Positions 1 through 16,085 of a stretch of DNA of 19,461 bases are shown here, piece after piece. The position numbers were made by a program, and so were the translations under genes. Every line of letters begins with the position of its first letter. The stretch's first letter is position 1. This DNA is from a virus (lineage: Duplodnaviria > Heunggongvirae > Uroviricota > Caudoviricetes). Below the pieces are notes generated by a model, which had not been told where the DNA came from, did not search any database, and was given only the letters and a program-made list of their open reading frames with translations. The stretch lies in the IMG/VR virus record IMGVR_UViG_2671180427_000015, positions 1 to 19,461 of that record; one strand, written 5' to 3'.

Positions 1-159
1 CACATCACCTTCTGCTGCAATCGCCTGCATCAGGGTATAAGGGGTTATGGCCACCGGACTACCAAACGGCTGCCAGCCCTCTTTCAGTTTGTGTGTCAGC
101 TTTTCCGCAAGATCTGACGGCGACGCCGCCCTGACAACATCATAATGTTTAATCGACAT
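1..159 (-). CDS. Hypothetical prophage late-region protein, 5' part only (53 codons; runs off the window start)
   Basis: Minus-strand ATG at 157..159 preceded by GGGAGAA Shine-Dalgarno; open to window edge; translation MSIKHYDVVRAASPSDLAEKLTHKLKEGWQPFGSPVAITPYTLMQAIAAEGDV. Not in the ORF track because it is incomplete. Confidence 0.5.
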   Translation of the reverse strand, partial: MSIKHYDVVRAASPSDLAEKLTHKLKEGWQPFGSPVAITPYTLMQAIAAEGDV

Positions 160-702
160 CGAATTTCTCCCGTGTACAGGAACAGAGTTAAAAAGCCGGA
201 ACCGGAATCAAATCACAGGATGACCATCTGCCAGTGGCAGGTCATAAAAAAAAGGCCGCGCCATGCGCAGCCAGAACTCACAAGGAAAATGATAGAAGGA
301 AATAACATTAGTGATGTACGCATGGCGCCTCCCGCTAAGTTCTGCAATGATCAAACAGAACTCGCTACGTGCCCTTAAAACTCGATCATTTAGCCCCTCC
401 AAGGAGGATTCACCATGCGGTTGGTTTTTTAATAAACAGTAAACAAAAAAGTCAAGAATTATTCATTCTGTTCTTTCATCATCGGCCACAGCAATACCAC
501 AATGCCGCAGACCAGAGCGCCATCAGTCAGTACCAACATTATCCTGCTGGTGAAATCCATCATCACCATCACTAAAAGCAGGATCACAACAGCAAGCAGA
601 CACAGTTTATAAAACAATGTTCAGAAAACGCATTCAGCATGCCTAAGGTTCTATTCCTACGAATAGCCAACTTGCAACTTAAAATATTATTTATGCAGCC
701 AA

Positions 703-1461
703 TTAAATTCTGGTCCTTACAATATCAACCTGAAGATTCTTATCTTGTGCTGATTGATAAATCACAAACCTTTTACTACCTGCATTGAAAGAAGTAGACA
801 AAACCAGACAATTATCATAACGAGCAAGAACATAATACCAACCATCATTATAATTAATCATTTCATATTCTTTCTTAAACTGTGGTTTGTAATATCCTGT
901 CAGAAATGAAAAAAGCCAGAAATATGCCACAAAAGCAATCATCACAATCTCAAAAAAATGTTTTTTTATAAATGGCTTATCATAGAAGCATGATACCGAT
1001 AAAAATCGCCCATAAGATCTTATCGAAATTGTAACCGCCAGCGCAATCGCTGCTGACAGTAGCAAAAGAGGTACCTGAATCTTCTGTCTCAATATAGAAA
1101 ACTCAATAATTGCCGGCACAAACAATAATTCCACAGCAAAATAAAGGCGAAATACATTTAGCTCTTGCATAGAATGTTTTCTTTTCACTGCGAAAAAGAA
1201 TACAACACCAATACCCCAACCGATAAGAAATATAGCAATGACGATAACTGCAAAAAATAAACTTCTGGCAACATCATCAACACCTGCACCTACAATCCAC
1301 CATGGGAAGCCGTAGTAAAAAGAAGTACCCCATCCATAGAAATAAGCACTCCCCCATCCAAGGCATCCCATGTAGGCAATAAAAAGTGAAGAACTCCTGA
1401 GCAGCGCACCATCCTTCATAACCACCCCAATACAAGATGATAACATTGGCTTACAACTCAT
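703..1461 (-). CDS. Polytopic inner-membrane protein of unknown function (about 5 hydrophobic helices plus a ~60-aa soluble C-terminal tail); moron in the late operon
   Basis: 252-aa ORF in markedly AT-rich DNA just downstream of Q/pR' on the same strand; several long hydrophobic stretches (e.g. LFFAVIVIAIFLIGWGIGVVFFFAV, FFEIVMIAFVAYFWLFSFL). No clear Shine-Dalgarno at the first ATG; true start may be an internal Met (e.g. MKDGALL). Confidence 0.55.
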   Translation of the reverse strand: MSCKPMLSSCIGVVMKDGALLRSSSLFIAYMGCLGWGSAYFYGWGTSFYYGFPWWIVGAGVDDVARSLFFAVIVIAIFLIGWGIGVVFFFAVKRKHSMQELNVFRLYFAVELLFVPAIIEFSILRQKIQVPLLLLSAAIALAVTISIRSYGRFLSVSCFYDKPFIKKHFFEIVMIAFVAYFWLFSFLTGYYKPQFKKEYEMINYNDGWYYVLARYDNCLVLSTSFNAGSKRFVIYQSAQDKNLQVDIVRTRI

Positions 1462-1627
1462 AACAAAAGCAATTCAATGCCGTCAAGAGGTTACAGGCTA
1501 AAAAAACTCTATTACATTGCAGTCAGCATGTTTACTACACAAATACAATTCAGAGCATAAAAACTACTCGGCGGCAGGTTATTGAGACTCATCAATGACA
1601 TGTAAAAAACGCCCATTATTGGTGTCA

Positions 1628-1656
1628 AGTTTCCCCAAAGTTATTCAAAAAGTCAA
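1628..1656 (-). promoter_or_regulatory. pR'-like late promoter with Q-utilisation region
   Basis: Minus strand reads TTGACT-17 nt-GAAACT then TTGACACCAATAATGGGCG, collinear with my recollection of lambda pR' (TTGACT...TAAATT TTGACTCAACGATGGG); lies 40 nt downstream of the Q stop. The -10 hexamer is degenerate. Confidence 0.45.
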
Positions 1657-1698
1657 TATTATGCCGTTAATATGTTGCCATCCGTGGCAATCATGGCG

Positions 1699-2322
1699 CT
1701 AACGTGTGATCGCATTCAAAATGTTGTCTGCGATTGACTCTTCCTTGTGGCATTGCACAACCAGAGCGTCATACAGCGGCTTAACAGTGCGTGACCAGGT
1801 GGGTTGGGTAAGGTTTGGGATTAGCATCGTCACAGCGCGATATGCGGCGCTTGCTGGCATTCTTGAATAACCGACGCCTTTACATCTTCCGCACTCTTTC
1901 TCAGCAACTATCCCCCACTGCTCTGTTTTGGCTATATCAACCGCACGGCCTGTACCGTGGCAATCTCTGCATCTTGCGCCCGGCGTAGCGGCACTACGGC
2001 AATAATCCGCATAAGCGAATGTTGCGAGCACTTGCAGTACCTTTGCCTTAGTATTTCCTTCAAGCTTTGCCACGCCACGGTATTTCCCCGATACCTTGTG
2101 TGCAAATTGCATCAGATAGTTGATAGCCTTTTGTTTGTCGTTCTGGCTGAGTTCGTGCTTACCACAGAATACAGCCATTCCGAATCCGGCTTGTGATTGC
2201 GCCATCCCCATAGCAGCCATCACATCAGTACCGGAAAGAGAGTCAGAAGCCGTGGCCCGTGGTGAGTCGCTCATCATCGGGCTTTTTGGCGAATGAAATT
2301 TAGCTACGCTTTCGAGTCTCAT
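1699..2322 (-). CDS. Q: Late-gene antiterminator Q
   Basis: 207-aa translation matches recalled lambda Q over its length; sits immediately upstream of the pR'-like promoter and overlaps the ninI stop by 4 nt. Confidence 0.9.
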
Positions 2323-2984
2323 GCGCCTTCTCCCTGTACCTGAATCAATGTGAGATTTCCGCAGAACACTGCCCCAGTATCGATATACATCTGGTTGGCA
2401 AATTTGAGTGGTTTCACTGCTGGCGTATGACCAAAGATAAACGTGTCCGCGCCTTTAATTTCTTTAACGATCCCGTCTTGTGAGTTGCTGATTCGTTCGC
2501 GGTTCCAGATTACCTGCTGATGATCAACTGGCTTTCCAAATTCGTATTCGTCACAAGGATAATCGGCGTGGCAGATGACATATTTTTTACCTTTGCTCAC
2601 CAGTTCGATGATTAACGGAAGTTCTTCTGCTTTATGGGCAAGAGCTTTAGCCAGAATTTCTTTGTCGTAATCGAGATTAAAGAACCAGCCACCGCCATTA
2701 AGCAGCCAGTGATTAACGTTTCCACGCTCTGATAAGCCATCAATCATCATTTGCTCATGGTTTCCACGTACAGCTCTGAACCAGGGGAATGTGATTAATT
2801 CCAGGCATTCAACGTTCTCTGCACCACGATCAACCAAATCGCCCACCGAGATAAGCAGGTCTTTTTTGTTGTCGAATCCAATCGTATCCAGTTTGTTCAT
2901 CAGGTTCGTGTAGCATCCGTGCAGATCGCCAACTACCCAAATATTTCGGTATTTGCTGCCATCAATTCTTTCGTAGATATTCAT
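2319..2984 (-). CDS. ninI: NinI (Nin221) Ser/Thr protein phosphatase
   Basis: 221 aa; PPP-family metallophosphatase motifs visible in translation (GDLHG, GDLVDRG, GNHE); matches recalled lambda NinI. Confidence 0.9.
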
Positions 2985-3595
2985 GCAGCCTCACTTCTGC
3001 TGTTTCGCAGTTTTTTAAGTTTCTGTTGATACTCCGCCTTGATGGTCCTGCACTCTTCGACAGTCCAGCGATGGCGGTTATGGTTTGATTCGATTTCGTC
3101 TACTGCTTCCTGCCCGATGCGGCTAATCAGTTCGACGCGATACGGAACGAGATTTCCGCTTTTGTGCTGGTTGCACACCACGCATTGCTTGTGAATATTG
3201 CGTTCATCAAATCGGAGTTGAGGTGCCGCAGCAGTTGTCCGGTAATGTCCGGCATCCCACTGAGCAGACGTGAGCGTTCCGCACGAGATACATGGTAAGT
3301 CGCGGTCTCTTTCTCTGATGAAGGCGTTTACGGCTTGTTGGGCTTGTTTAATCCAGTAACTGCGGGGCTTTAAGGCGAGTTTTCGAATCTTAAGTTTATC
3401 TTTCTGTTTCTGCTCCTCTCGTCGTCGTTTCTTCTCTGCTGCTTTTTCCGCTTTTTCGCGTTCTTTACTTCGTCGTTCGAGTGCTATCTTGGTTCCACAC
3501 TCTGGAGAGCACCACCACTGATTAGCGAATGCAGGGTGAAACCATTCCCGACATTCATCGTTTTTACATCGTCTTCGCGCTGGTTTAGCCATCAT
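2981..3595 (-). CDS. ninG: NinG (Rap) recombination-associated structure-specific endonuclease
   Basis: 204 aa, Cys-rich N-terminus and lysine/glutamate-rich linker; matches recalled lambda NinG. Directly abuts ninI, so lambda ninH is absent. Confidence 0.9.
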
Positions 3596-5259: not shown

Positions 5260-5957
5260 ACACTTGCTCCTTTCAGTCCGAACTTAGCTTTAATTTCTGC
5301 GATCTTCGCCAGCGCCTGAACACGATTTAGAGGTCTGCCGCCCATGACAGGAAGTTGTTTTATTGGTTCAGGTATCGTCTCACCACGGTTAATTCGCGCT
5401 GTCATACAGGTCAGTTCATCGGCAGCCTTGCGTCGTAATTCCGCGTCAGTCAGCGCATTGGCCCGCATGTTCTGGTACAGGTTGGTAACCAGCCAGTAGT
5501 GCGCGTTCGATTTCCACGGATAAGACTCTGCATCCGGATACAGGCCTCGCTTCCGGCAATACTCGTAAACCATATCAACCAGCTCGCTGACGTTTGGCAG
5601 TCCGGCGATAACGGATGCTTCTTCCCGGCACCATGCAACAAACTGCCCGGGTGATGGCAGAAATGGTCGATTCTGCCGACGGGCTACGCGCATTCCTGCG
5701 TTAACCTGTTCCATTGTGGTGATCCCGTTTTCCCGGAAAGCCAGAACCCACTGGCGGCGGATTTCGTTCAGTTCGTTCTGGTCACGGTTAGCCAGGCTCG
5801 CCGGGAAAGTTGCCAGTAACTGGCTGAACACACCGTTGATGATCTGCGCTACCTGCTGTACCTGAGGCTTTTCGTCGTACTGTTCCGGCATGTTGTTGGC
5901 GATCCGACGCATCTGCTCACGGTCAAAGTTAACCATCTGTGCGGCGATGTTTTTCAT
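5256..5957 (-). CDS. P: Replication protein P (DnaB helicase loader)
   Basis: 233-aa translation matches recalled lambda P; 4-nt overlap with O stop. Confidence 0.9.
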   Translation of the reverse strand: MKNIAAQMVNFDREQMRRIANNMPEQYDEKPQVQQVAQIINGVFSQLLATFPASLANRDQNELNEIRRQWVLAFRENGITTMEQVNAGMRVARRQNRPFLPSPGQFVAWCREEASVIAGLPNVSELVDMVYEYCRKRGLYPDAESYPWKSNAHYWLVTNLYQNMRANALTDAELRRKAADELTCMTARINRGETIPEPIKQLPVMGGRPLNRVQALAKIAEIKAKFGLKGASV

Positions 5958-6853
5958 AAATCCACCCCGTAAATCCAGTCAGTGTTTGTCAGGTCGAGTT
6001 TTGGTTTGCAGGCTGTCACGCCTGCCTGTTGCTTGTTACGGTTGATTTCGAGCTGGGTCCACTTGTCGCGGAGTTTGGCCGGGCTCAGCACGTTACCGGA
6101 CCAGAAGTTGTCCTGGCATGCCCAGCGGAACAGTACACACATGTCGCGATGGTTACGTCCGTCACGTTCACGCATCAGGCGGATATCGTTAGCCCACCCT
6201 GCAAAATTCGGTTTTCTGGCTGATGGCGCGATGGTCTTCACCATGTCAAACATCCACTCTGCGGCGGTCAGATCTTCTGCTGTCCCCCACCTGCTGCCGC
6301 TCTGAATTGCAGCATCTGGTTTCTCCACAGAAAGATCGTTTTCTGGCTGGTCAGAGGATTCGCCTGAATTCTCTGACGAATAATCTTTTCTTTTTTCTTT
6401 TGTAATAGTGTCTTTTGTGTCCCCCTGTTTTGAGGGATAGCAATCCCTCAATTTGAGGGATGTTTTATCCCTCGTTTTAGGGGATTTTCCCTCGTTTTGA
6501 GGGATACACCATTCTGAGATGTTTTTATTTGGTCCAAACATGCCGCCTTGCTGCTTGATAATATTCATTCTGACGAGTTCTAACTTGGCTTCATTGCACC
6601 GTTTGACGGGTAACTTTGTAATCTCGCTAAGTTGAGAATCGGTGATTCTGTCCATTGGTTTATTCCACCCATAGGTTTTACGCAGAATGGCAAGCAGCAC
6701 TTTAAACTGTCGCTTGGTCAGATCTGCGCCTGAATAAGCCTCAAGCAGCATATTTGATAGTCTGACGTAACCATCATCGAGATCTGCCACATTACGCTCC
6801 TGTTCGGCAAAGTTACCTCTGCCGAAGTTGAGTATTTTTGCTATATTTGTCAT
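5954..6853 (-). CDS. O: Replication initiator O
   Basis: 299-aa translation matches recalled lambda O; contains ori iterons internally. Confidence 0.9.
   Translation of the reverse strand: MTNIAKILNFGRGNFAEQERNVADLDDGYVRLSNMLLEAYSGADLTKRQFKVLLAILRKTYGWNKPMDRITDSQLSEITKLPVKRCNEAKLELVRMNIIKQQGGMFGPNKNISEWCIPQNEGKSPKTRDKTSLKLRDCYPSKQGDTKDTITKEKRKDYSSENSGESSDQPENDLSVEKPDAAIQSGSRWGTAEDLTAAEWMFDMVKTIAPSARKPNFAGWANDIRLMRERDGRNHRDMCVLFRWACQDNFWSGNVLSPAKLRDKWTQLEINRNKQQAGVTACKPKLDLTNTDWIYGVDL
6379..6506. repeat. Origin of replication (ori lambda type): four iterons plus adjacent AT-rich segment inside the O gene
   Basis: Four tandem ~20-bp units each containing an inverted TCCCTC...GAGGGA pair between about 6418 and 6506, flanked at 6379..6417 by a T-rich stretch (TCTTTTCTTTTTTCTTTTGTAATAG). 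Confidence 0.8.
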
Positions 6854-6885
6854 AATGACTCCTGTGGATTGATCCAGTAATTCCC

Positions 6886-7182
6886 TCAGAATTGCATATC
6901 AATTTGCTTAAAATCCTCGGTGGCAGCCGGGGATTTTTTCTTTGTGATTTCATCAAGCGCATACTTAAAAGCCCTGCTAATCGGACTGATGTCTGATGCC
7001 ATTCCGAAAGCACACAAGACCGAAGCAATAAATCTCCAGTCCGTTCTGCTTATCTTCGATTCATGACAGCCAATCATCTTTGCCAAACCGCGCTGTGTAA
7101 GCGTTGATAGGTTGATGAGTAAATCTGTTTCTGCGCGATCAACGTCACGCTGTGATAGTTTGCTGTAACTTGTTCGTTCCAT
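6886..7182 (-). CDS. CII-family lysogeny transcriptional activator (not the lambda allele)
   Basis: 98 aa; C-terminal ...KKKSPAATEDFKQIDMQF resembles lambda CII C-terminus (...KKRPAATERSEQIQMEF); located directly downstream of cro and nutR. Confidence 0.7.
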   Translation of the reverse strand: MERTSYSKLSQRDVDRAETDLLINLSTLTQRGLAKMIGCHESKISRTDWRFIASVLCAFGMASDISPISRAFKYALDEITKKKSPAATEDFKQIDMQF

Positions 7183-14116: not shown

Positions 14117-14520
14117 GCGAAATTAACTCTCAGGCACTGCGTGAAGCGGCAGAGAAAGCCGGTGAAGATAAGTGGCAGGCTAAAAAAATAAATGGTGATT
14201 TTTTCGTTATTCGTCACGGTAGTTATACAAGACAGCATGGCTACACATCGTATCAACCCATTGCGGAGATTGATTGTAAGCCAGTCCGGGATTTTGTTGC
14301 CAAGGCTAATCCGGCTACCGTGCTGGAATTACTGGATGAACTGGAAGCAGCAAAAAAGCGCATTGCAGAACTGGAAGCGCGGGAAATACTGCTCCCGGAA
14401 CGTAGCAGCATGCTTCATCGAACAGATTTTCACGATGATTACCAAACGGTAATGGCATACAAAGTTTCTGAAGTCATCGATGCAATCCGCGCTACTGGCA
14501 TTCGCATCAAAGGAGAGTGA
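14113..14520 (+). CDS. Ea22-like protein (shorter than lambda Ea22)
   Basis: GTG start in a GTGA overlap with the upstream stop, GAGAGG Shine-Dalgarno; N-terminus MSEINSQALREAAEKA... and C-terminus ...GIRIKGE agree with recalled lambda Ea22 termini; central coiled-coil-like LELLDELEAAKKRIAELEARE. Confidence 0.6.
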   Translation: MSEINSQALREAAEKAGEDKWQAKKINGDFFVIRHGSYTRQHGYTSYQPIAEIDCKPVRDFVAKANPATVLELLDELEAAKKRIAELEAREILLPERSSMLHRTDFHDDYQTVMAYKVSEVIDAIRATGIRIKGE

Positions 14521-14521
14521 G

Positions 14522-15277
14522 ATGATTCACTACCACGGTGGGCCTATTACTCCTGATACGTGCGCAATGAGAGCATGGAAAGGGCGACATGCGTTTATCA
14601 GTTTTGCGCATTCAGGCCAGATCAATCTCGCGGCTGAATACTGTCAGTCGTTCGCGCTGGACAACGGTGCATTCACCGCCTGGAAAGCAGCTGGCAAAAA
14701 CAAAATCGACTGGAGCGATTACTACGAGTTTGTTGCTCGCTGGAAGAATCACCCAGGATTCGATTTTGCCATTATCCCGGATATTATTGATGGCGGAGAG
14801 GAGGAAAATGATGCGCTTCTGAATGAGTGGCCTCACGGAAAACTAGCTGGCGTTCCAGTGTGGCACATGAATGAAAGTGACGCGCGATTTATTCATTTGT
14901 GCAATGAGTTTCCGCGAGTGGCTATCGGTAGTTGTGGCGACTATGACGTAAAGCGCCCAACTCTTGCGGTAGCCAGAATGAAAGACCTGATTCGTCACAT
15001 TGTTGATGGGCATGGTCAGCCGGTTACGAAACTACATGGATTGCGCATGTTAAATCCGCTGATATTCACAAAATTACCCTTAGCCAGCGCAGATAGTACG
15101 AACGTCGCTCGAAACATCGGTATTGATAAAGCCTGGTCTGGGGCTTATGCACCTGCAAGTAAAGAGACACGCGCAGCATTAATGGTAGAACGGATTGAGG
15201 CACACAATAGCCCTGGTTCTCTTGCGTATTGTGAACAACGCGACCGCTTTGAAATGCAATTGCAACTAGCAGTTTAA
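14522..15277 (+). CDS. Candidate queuine tRNA-ribosyltransferase-fold protein (DpdA-like 7-deazaguanine DNA transglycosylase candidate)
   Basis: 251 aa from ATG 14522 (AGGAG 6 nt upstream). Five collinear segments resemble recalled E. coli Tgt motifs: LDNGAF (TDSGGF), FAIIPD (MIFDEC), VAIGS (YAVGG), LHGLRML (YLMGVG), ADSTNVARN (FDCVMPTRNARN). No zinc-binding C-terminal subdomain. Functional call unverified. Confidence 0.5.
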   Translation: MIHYHGGPITPDTCAMRAWKGRHAFISFAHSGQINLAAEYCQSFALDNGAFTAWKAAGKNKIDWSDYYEFVARWKNHPGFDFAIIPDIIDGGEEENDALLNEWPHGKLAGVPVWHMNESDARFIHLCNEFPRVAIGSCGDYDVKRPTLAVARMKDLIRHIVDGHGQPVTKLHGLRMLNPLIFTKLPLASADSTNVARNIGIDKAWSGAYAPASKETRAALMVERIEAHNSPGSLAYCEQRDRFEMQLQLAV

Positions 15278-15287
15278 GGACTAACAA

Positions 15288-16085
15288 ATGACCACTATTA
15301 CCAAAGAACGTATTGAATTGTTCATTAAAAATCCGCTTGAAAACGGGCTTACTCGTGGCGAACAAATGGAACTGGCACGAATTGCACTGGCATCACTGGA
15401 ACGCGAACTGATTCGCCACGAGCATGCCAAATGGTCTGACTCCACATTTGGCTGCGTTGGCCCCATTGGTCCACTGAAACACCTCTCAAAAGAGGCTCTG
15501 GAAGCCGCAGCCGAACCAGACGATCTCAGCTAGTGGGCTGATATGCATTTCCTGTTGTGGGATGCACAGCGCCGTGCTGGCATCAGCGATGCTGAAATTA
15601 CCGCTGCTATGGAAGATAAATTGAAGATCAACATGGAGCGCCAGTGGCCTGAACCAAAAGATGGTGAGCCTCGCTTGCACATTAAAGAACCCGGCAACTC
15701 TCCGGTAATTCCGGATGGTTTATCCACGGTATGCGCTGAGGCTTATCAGGTTGTAGGAGTTATGGCAGATGCGCTTGGTGTATTCGGTGATGCAGCAGTA
15801 CAGAAAGTTCTGGATAACCTGTCACAGCAAAAACTTGTTCACAGAGATGTGCTGCCGTTCTCGCTTCCGGTGACTCCGGATGGTTGGATAAGCTGTAGTG
15901 AGCGAATGCCGAAAGAAACGGGTGACATTATTGTTGTTTCGGATGGCATTGTAATGTCCGGGATTTCTTATTCTCGTCGTGACGGGTTCTATATAGCCGC
16001 ATTGGAGTACGACGACGATGAGCCAATTGGCGGTGTAACCCACTGGATGCCTCTACCAGAACCGCCTCGATTAAAGGAGCTATAA
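15288..16085 (+). pseudogene. MazG-like NTP pyrophosphohydrolase / DUF551 reading frame interrupted by an in-frame amber codon (TAG 15531..15533)
   Basis: Track ORFs 15288..15533 and 15543..16085 are in the same frame, separated by TAG plus three sense codons; a MazG-like helix pattern (...EALEAAAEPDDLS * WADMHFLLWDAQRRAGISDAEITAAMEDKLKINMERQW) spans the stop; C-terminal ...HWMPLPEPP is DUF551-like. No convincing Shine-Dalgarno before the downstream ATG. Confidence 0.5.

Follow-up and report, generated by a model that had tools for sequence, protein, structure and literature searches.

A split gene in the exo-xis region

The window (here the whole 19,461-nt stretch of viral DNA that was analysed, IMG/VR record IMGVR_UViG_2671180427_000015) carries two neighbouring ORFs of the plus strand, 15288..15533 and 15543..16085, in the exo-xis region of a lambda-like prophage located beside the host gene ybhC. 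The gene order, in the window as in its relatives, is nin region, P, O, cII, cro, cI, sieB, ral, cIII, kil, gam, bet, exo, a TraR-like gene, an ea22-like gene, a 251-aa gene, the split gene, ea8.5, xis, int and finally the host ybhC. Judging from the ORF list of the window, the other early genes appear undamaged, which points to a single lesion and not to general decay.

The first-pass annotation had placed both ORFs in one frame, with only an amber codon and three sense codons between them, and the sequence, the ORF list and the translation all bear this out. The first ORF runs from the ATG at 15288 to the TAG at 15531-15533 and the second from the ATG at 15543 to the TAA at 16083-16085. Around the stop, the read-through translation is ...EPDDLS(stop)WADMHFLLWDAQRR..., and over a longer stretch ...KEALEAAAEPDDLS(stop)WADMHFLLWDAQRR... 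(Table 1 for the features). The sharing of a frame is by itself a weak argument for common ancestry, since it is expected by chance in one case out of three; it is the continuation of the PF04447 domain over the TAG that indicates one ancestral domain cut by the stop.

Table 1. Features of the interrupted gene (window coordinates; residue numbers are those of the repaired protein)
Feature	Position	Strand	Remarks
Shine-Dalgarno-like AAGGA	15276..15280	+	Serves the true start, ATG 15288; predicted duplex with the 16S 3' end, -5.8 kcal/mol
N-terminal fragment, 81 codons and amber stop	15288..15533	+	From the ORF list; mosaic N-terminal leader (residues 1-40) and predicted helices 1-2 of the MazG-like domain
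ExxE codons E69-A-L-E72, putative first acidic metal-binding motif, intact	15492..15503	+	E69 and E72 invariant in alignments
Amber codon TAG for GAG (Glu82)	15531..15533	+	Single G>T transversion at 15531
Orphan codons TGG GCT GAT (W83 A84 D85), remainder of the ExxD motif	15534..15542	+	In neither fragment
C-terminal fragment, 180 codons from internal Met86 of the ancestral protein	15543..16085	+	Most of predicted helix 3, helix 4, variable linker, DUF551
PF04447 (dATP/dGTP pyrophosphohydrolase, formerly DUF550), residues 42-137	15411..15698	+	E 1.2e-40
DUF551 (PF04448), residues 199-260, predicted small beta domain	15882..16067	+	Pfam match; strands 213-255

Both fragments belong to the same Pfam family, as does the joined sequence, and all three lie above the gathering score of PF04447 (23 bits). 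The 81-aa fragment matches profile positions 1-38 (E 9.5e-13, 48.7 bits), the 180-aa fragment positions 45-96 (E 3.1e-19, 69.4 bits) and the joined protein positions 1-96 of 97 (138.1 bits). A profile search assigning the halves to unrelated families had been named as an outcome that would speak against a single gene; these searches gave the opposite. The DUF551 match also exceeds its gathering score (22 bits) and is about equally strong in the joined protein (E 7.6e-14) and in the 180-aa fragment (E 3.9e-14, 53.7 bits, profile positions 1-67 of 68). PF04447 owes its name to an enzyme of the Acinetobacter phage SH-Ab 15497 (PMC12884076), and DUF551 is a portable domain, found also in an Ea22 variant and in YfdS (PMC10834534).

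Immediately upstream of the split gene, the 251-aa gene (14522..15277, plus strand) matches PHROG 887, 'queuine tRNA-ribosyltransferase' (E 2.6e-101), and has no match in searches of Pfam and of the PDB sequences. As the PHROG 887 match indicates, its predicted product is a TGT/DpdA-like protein. The ORF list starts this gene at the ATG 14480, whose Shine-Dalgarno pairing is only -0.5 kcal/mol; the ATG at 14522, which is the annotated start in relatives and lies just past the stop of the ea22-like gene at 14520, reaches -9.1 kcal/mol. Phages that carry dpdA only are known and include a gamma-proteobacterial cluster (PMC6884629), and a literature search combining DpdA and lambdoid prophages returned nothing specific.

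The codon replaced by the stop

The 798 bases of the split gene were compared by megablast with 5,426 complete E. coli genomes, of which 57 have a single match covering at least 80% of the query; the 40 of these that were listed show full-length coverage and 99.7-99.9% identity. Two of them (L001 and L002) are identical to the window at 797 of 798 nt, the sole difference being position 15531 (T in the window, G in the relatives), and a third (L003) differs at 15531 and 15996. In all three, codon 82 is GAG (Glu) and the ORF is uninterrupted over 265 codons. The same GAG and single ORF are found in four sequenced phages, namely the Stx1a-converting phage EH2115 (Stx1a_EH2115), phiv142-3, ev017 and Salmonella phage VSe13, and the three of these phage records that are annotated name the ORF variously 'Eaa prophage protein', 'DUF550 domain-containing protein' or 'Phage EaA protein'.

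As the nearest complete E. coli genomes differ from the window only by G instead of T at 15531, the ancestral codon 82 was GAG (Glu). The sequence comparison thus shows that one G>T change at 15531 turned codon 82 from GAG into TAG. It likewise shows an ancestral gene for a 265-aa protein, predicted to begin with a MazG-like all-alpha nucleotide pyrophosphohydrolase domain (PF04447/DUF550), which a linker of variable sequence connects to DUF551 at the C-terminus. Intact orthologues (L001 and L002) that differ at the stop codon alone are what a recent nonsense mutation should leave. The first-pass annotation had proposed precisely such an ancestral MazG-like plus DUF551 gene broken by a nonsense mutation, and its proposal holds: when homologues are aligned at codon 82, the position is a sense codon (GAG/Glu) elsewhere, and no homologues consistently having a stop there were found.

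The intact relatives are the Eaa or DUF550-DUF551 proteins of lambdoid and P22-like phages. They correspond to the same gene, with the same PF04447 plus PF04448 architecture and the same position between the ea22-like gene and ea8.5/xis/int, and their annotation names include 'dATP/dGTP pyrophosphohydrolase domain-containing protein'. They differ from the window in being intact (265 aa), whereas the window encodes 81-aa and 180-aa fragments owing to TAG instead of GAG at codon 82.

Two side observations concern these relatives. The linker (15690..15880, about residues 135-197 of the repaired protein) is modelled with very low confidence (pLDDT 30-44) with two short predicted helices, and is absent from the Eaa proteins of phiv142-3 and VSe13; it looks like an optional mosaic insert. 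Furthermore, RefSeq/PGAP annotates the intact GAG allele as a 40-codon 'partial, missing C-terminus' pseudogene followed by a CDS of 234 or 206 aa in the same frame (positions 3001-3798 of L001, L002 and L003 and 13123-13920 of L016). The starts of these CDSs are codon 32 or codon 60, both ATT, and this division of an intact 265-codon ORF seems to be an artefact of annotation by which the complete frame is obscured.

The conservation of residue 82 was assessed on representatives of 50%-identity clusters, the 150 best ones in a library of 1.8 billion proteins. Glu82 is found in all 140 representatives that cover the position ungapped, with W83, A84 and D85 in nearly all, but these representatives are at least about 70% identical within the domain, so that this is invariance within a clade and not deep conservation. 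A 50-sequence alignment (A1) likewise has E69, E72, E82, W83, A84 and D85 invariant. Because the family representatives are all fairly close to one another, the case for MazG chemistry is made from a structure-based comparison.

A profile search of the PDB had a single match, MazZ of cyanophage S-2L (7ODY), at marginal sequence similarity (E 0.048, 28% identity), and it aligns E82-W-A-D85 over E50-V-A-D53. MazZ was reached with the profile; a single-sequence search of the PDB gave chance matches only (E above 0.8). In the MazZ crystal structure, E50 binds two of the three catalytic metal ions, ion B together with D53 and ion C together with E38 (PMC8342488). Enzymes of the MazZ-2/DUF550 type retain four acidic residues matching E35, E38, E50 and position 53 of MazZ (PMC8342488). 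The claim that a MazG-type signature runs across the stop is therefore upheld and can be made more specific, the TAG replacing the Glu of E82-W-A-D85 that is aligned to the E50/D53 pair of MazZ.

An AlphaFold2 model was made on P0046, an intact homologue that is nearly identical to the repaired window protein and deviates from it at residue 75. It predicts helices at residues 23-54, 60-75, 80-96 and 101-117, with pLDDT 83-93 over residues 41-120, and a small beta domain for DUF551 (strands 213-255, pLDDT 72-84). The best Foldseek match of this model in the PDB is again 7ODY (target TM-score 0.71, prob 1.00, 28% identity, rmsd 3.0 over 87 columns), at an E-value of only 0.08, and the superposition of the P0046 model on 7ODY supports a predicted MazG-HisE four-helix bundle. 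The Foldseek matches of the DUF551 part to Tudor- or chromo-like barrels were dismissed, as they are not significant (E 0.4-1.4). From the Glu in all 140 covering representatives, the 7ODY alignment and the AlphaFold2 model, the amber codon is placed at the start of predicted helix 3, where it replaces the putative metal-binding glutamate of the ExxD motif.

Pyrophosphohydrolase activity (dNTP to dNMP and PPi) has been demonstrated for two enzymes only, that of SH-Ab 15497 and MazZ of S-2L (PMC12884076; PMC8342488). The former, a DUF550 (MazZ-2) enzyme, converts dGTP and dATP to the monophosphates (PMC12884076), the latter converts dGTP to the monophosphate, and both feed 2-aminoadenine synthesis (PMC8342488, PMC12884076). 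The family of the window shares with MazZ the predicted all-alpha MazG-HisE fold and the acidic ligands (E82/D85 for E50/D53). It differs from the MazZ and MazZ-2 systems in being fused to DUF551 and not to DUF5664, and, in the allele of the window, by the destruction of the catalytic motif. As to Z-genome phages, neither PurZ nor DatZ was noticed in the gene lists and annotations of the window and its relatives, which were read without a dedicated search.

Products of the interrupted gene

Translation from the ATG 15288 would stop after 81 residues and yield half of a four-helix bundle, bearing the ExxE motif alone. The first-pass annotation had predicted an 81-aa product deprived of the final catalytic helix; helix 4 would indeed be missing from it, but so would helix 3 of the predicted bundle, and the prediction was correct only in part. 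The codons of W83, A84 and D85, which occupy the 9 nt after the stop, would remain untranslated, leaving the ExxD motif in neither product. The four acidic ligands (ExxE ... ExxD) are thus found within one polypeptide in the intact relatives and not in the TAG allele. Since the first fragment ends at S81 and the second starts at M86, with the ExxD motif in neither, we infer from conservation and from the MazZ structure that the hydrolase of the TAG allele is dead and that the two fragments together could not rebuild the active site.

The downstream ATG (15543) had been described as lacking a convincing ribosome-binding site, and its pairing energy agrees with this description: its Shine-Dalgarno is weak (-3.3 kcal/mol), 37% of random window positions scoring -3.0 kcal/mol or better, and most of the other starts tested in the window range from -4.9 to -9.2 kcal/mol. 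In E. coli, reinitiation without a Shine-Dalgarno operates at short distance and decays with distance; with a spacing of 20 nt, a second cistron lacking this sequence is translated ten times less than one that contains it (PMC3592434). Ribosomes terminating at the TAG may therefore reinitiate at the ATG 9 nt further on despite its weak Shine-Dalgarno. This would yield some 180-aa product with an intact DUF551 and would also limit polarity on ea8.5, xis and int. Considering the position of this ATG and the short distances at which such reinitiation operates, it is plausible that some 180-aa DUF551 protein is made, though only if ribosomes reinitiate or, weakly, start de novo.

Common amber suppressors insert Gln, Tyr, Ser or Leu. 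The suggestion that the gene would be conditionally expressed in an amber-suppressor host can thus be retained for the length of the polypeptide. It probably does not extend to the enzyme: a full-length chain would be made in such a host, but enzyme activity would probably not return, because the inserted residue would replace Glu, the invariant metal ligand.

Spread and persistence of the amber allele

The exact 81-aa product is encoded by 78 contigs and the 180-aa product by 37 contigs (e.g. CTS34844.1 and CTS34880.1). Ten contigs, comprising isolate assemblies, a 5.09-Mb chromosome and gut metagenome scaffolds, were fetched; all ten carry the TAG, with 0-1 other differences in 798 nt and two singleton SNPs across the ten loci, and the downstream ORF is intact in every one. 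The stop is thus confined to a small group of almost identical sequences. The allele is in the minority, since at least 1000 contigs encode the intact 265-aa protein. An 88-mer containing the TAG was found in none of the 5,426 complete E. coli genomes, a TAG 32-mer in no IMG/VR contig as compared with 41 for the GAG 32-mer, and no match to the TAG allele exists among the GTDB species representatives. The JGI/ENA metagenome set contains one TAG contig, from human gut.

Five of the ten contigs diverge from the window by about 1.2% in ybhC, with divergence also in bet/exo, and are essentially identical to it (0-1 differences) between about 13.5 and 18 kb. In one of the ten loci (L012), a 2.4-kb module made of the 3' part of the ea22-like gene, the DpdA-like gene, the split eaa and ea8.5 lies within a P22-like backbone (1-3050 and 5470-7058) that carries Rad52-like, SSB and anti-RecBCD genes and, on the opposite strand, an integrase of another kind. 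The DpdA-like gene and the split eaa have thus travelled as one module into this backbone, and L012 clearly illustrates how temperate phages of different types exchange modules, with the pseudogene carried along. The diverged ybhC flanks and the L012 backbone establish the TAG allele as a heritable one that has reached two or more host backgrounds as well as a second phage backbone. The presence of the TAG in several backgrounds without secondary lesion fits a very recent neutral mutation, and some benefit would also be compatible with it.

Other members of the family carry lesions at other positions. In one relative (P0012) the product is 82 aa long and has E82 as its last residue, implying that the next codon, 83, is a stop; another (P0003) has a 139-aa product that diverges after about residue 125, as by a frameshift; P0226, P0217 and P0221 are also among the relatives with lesions. 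Several chimeras were found as well, in which the MazG-like domain breaks off inside the RRAG motif or directly behind it (about residue 95-100) and continues into unrelated sequence, in one type a lysozyme-like tail. A further protein (P0173, 178 aa, starting at W83 and with a different DUF551 tail) was considered as a second TAG-type allele and rejected as a partial call at contig ends. Independent lesions at different positions in the family argue for relaxed selection on a dispensable prophage gene.

These data make it very probable that the split gene is a natural amber allele of an accessory gene of the 'eaa' type, carried in the exo-xis region by a lambda-like prophage of E. coli that lies beside ybhC. 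The exo-xis genes are described as not essential for laboratory propagation (PMC6213356). The following history can be proposed: the lesion would have been tolerated because the region is dispensable for phage growth, and it would then have been passed on and transferred from one background to another, while staying in the minority. As in the decay of E. coli prophages by point mutation, a point lesion affects an accessory gene and other truncations and frameshifts occur in the family; the window differs in having a single lesion in an early region that is otherwise apparently intact.

Selection could instead have favoured the split itself, if the loss of the hydrolase combined with a separately translated, DUF551-containing 180-aa protein were beneficial. 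Such a benefit might be, for example, the removal of a toxic or defence-triggering enzyme, the behaviour of the prophage would be altered (e.g. its lysis-lysogeny balance or its interaction with host defences), and the occurrence of the allele in several host and phage backbones would be accounted for. The occurrence of the TAG in two or more host backgrounds and also in a second phage backbone, the downstream ORF kept intact in all ten loci, an ATG just 9 nt past the stop and the portability of DUF551, which is found in other proteins (PMC10834534), are in keeping with this possibility. It is nevertheless unlikely, as the allele is a minority one (78 contigs against at least 1000, none of 5,426 genomes, and 0 against 41 in IMG/VR), its copies are so nearly identical that it must be young and may owe its spread to hitch-hiking, initiation at 15543 is weak, and disruptive alleles elsewhere in the gene are what relaxed selection predicts.

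It is very unlikely that a functional full-length enzyme arises through decoding of the amber codon at a useful rate, whether by a suppressor tRNA or owing to a leaky context. The stop does have an open frame before and after it, and amber suppression is real in E. coli laboratory strains, but the stop is conserved in no diverged homologue, codon 82 encoding Glu in 140 of 140 representatives and being GAG in the four sequenced phages, and the 19.5-kb window contains no tRNA gene. Neither is the RNA after the stop unusually structured: the region 15515-15634 has z = -0.5, and 54 of 200 shuffled sequences fold at least as well. The base following the stop is U (UAG-U), which should favour efficient termination in E. 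coli, and the common suppressors would place one of their four amino acids at the putative metal-binding Glu. Laboratory amber mutants of phages (e.g. lambda Sam7, Oam and Pam) affect essential genes and were selected on suppressor hosts. Like them, the allele consists of a single UAG codon in a phage gene, readable in a suppressor host; unlike them, it is natural, affects a dispensable accessory gene, occurs in wild isolates and gut metagenomes and has its stop at a residue where the inserted amino acid matters.

A sequencing or assembly error in the window, the true base being G, might be suspected from a one-base difference from many intact copies, but is highly improbable, given that the TAG is present in ten of ten independently assembled contigs and in one further metagenome contig and that the products are deposited under several GenBank accessions. 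Two separate genes of unrelated families, adjacent and in the same frame by chance, are what gene callers annotate as two CDSs, but this reading is already refuted by the consecutive PF04447 matches of the two pieces (1-38 and 45-96; 138 bits when joined) and by the single ORF of the relatives. Pyrrolysine or a reassigned code was dropped, the locus being a near-identical copy of ordinary E. coli prophage DNA; a reassigned code is also disfavoured by the fact that no other interrupted frame was noticed in the window's ORF list.

The amber allele of eaa is therefore a case of ordinary prophage gene decay and not of a new mechanism, and GenBank already contains it in the form of two distinct CDSs. 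What is usefully added here is that the stop would take the place of a metal ligand of the catalytic site and that both products lack the ExxD motif in its entirety. The correct annotation is one pseudogene, or amber allele, of the eaa/DUF550-DUF551 gene instead of two 'DUF550 domain-containing proteins', and any read-through product would bear a substitution at a metal-binding residue. The TAG allele could serve as a natural knock-out to probe the Eaa-type MazG-like enzyme in lambdoid prophages.
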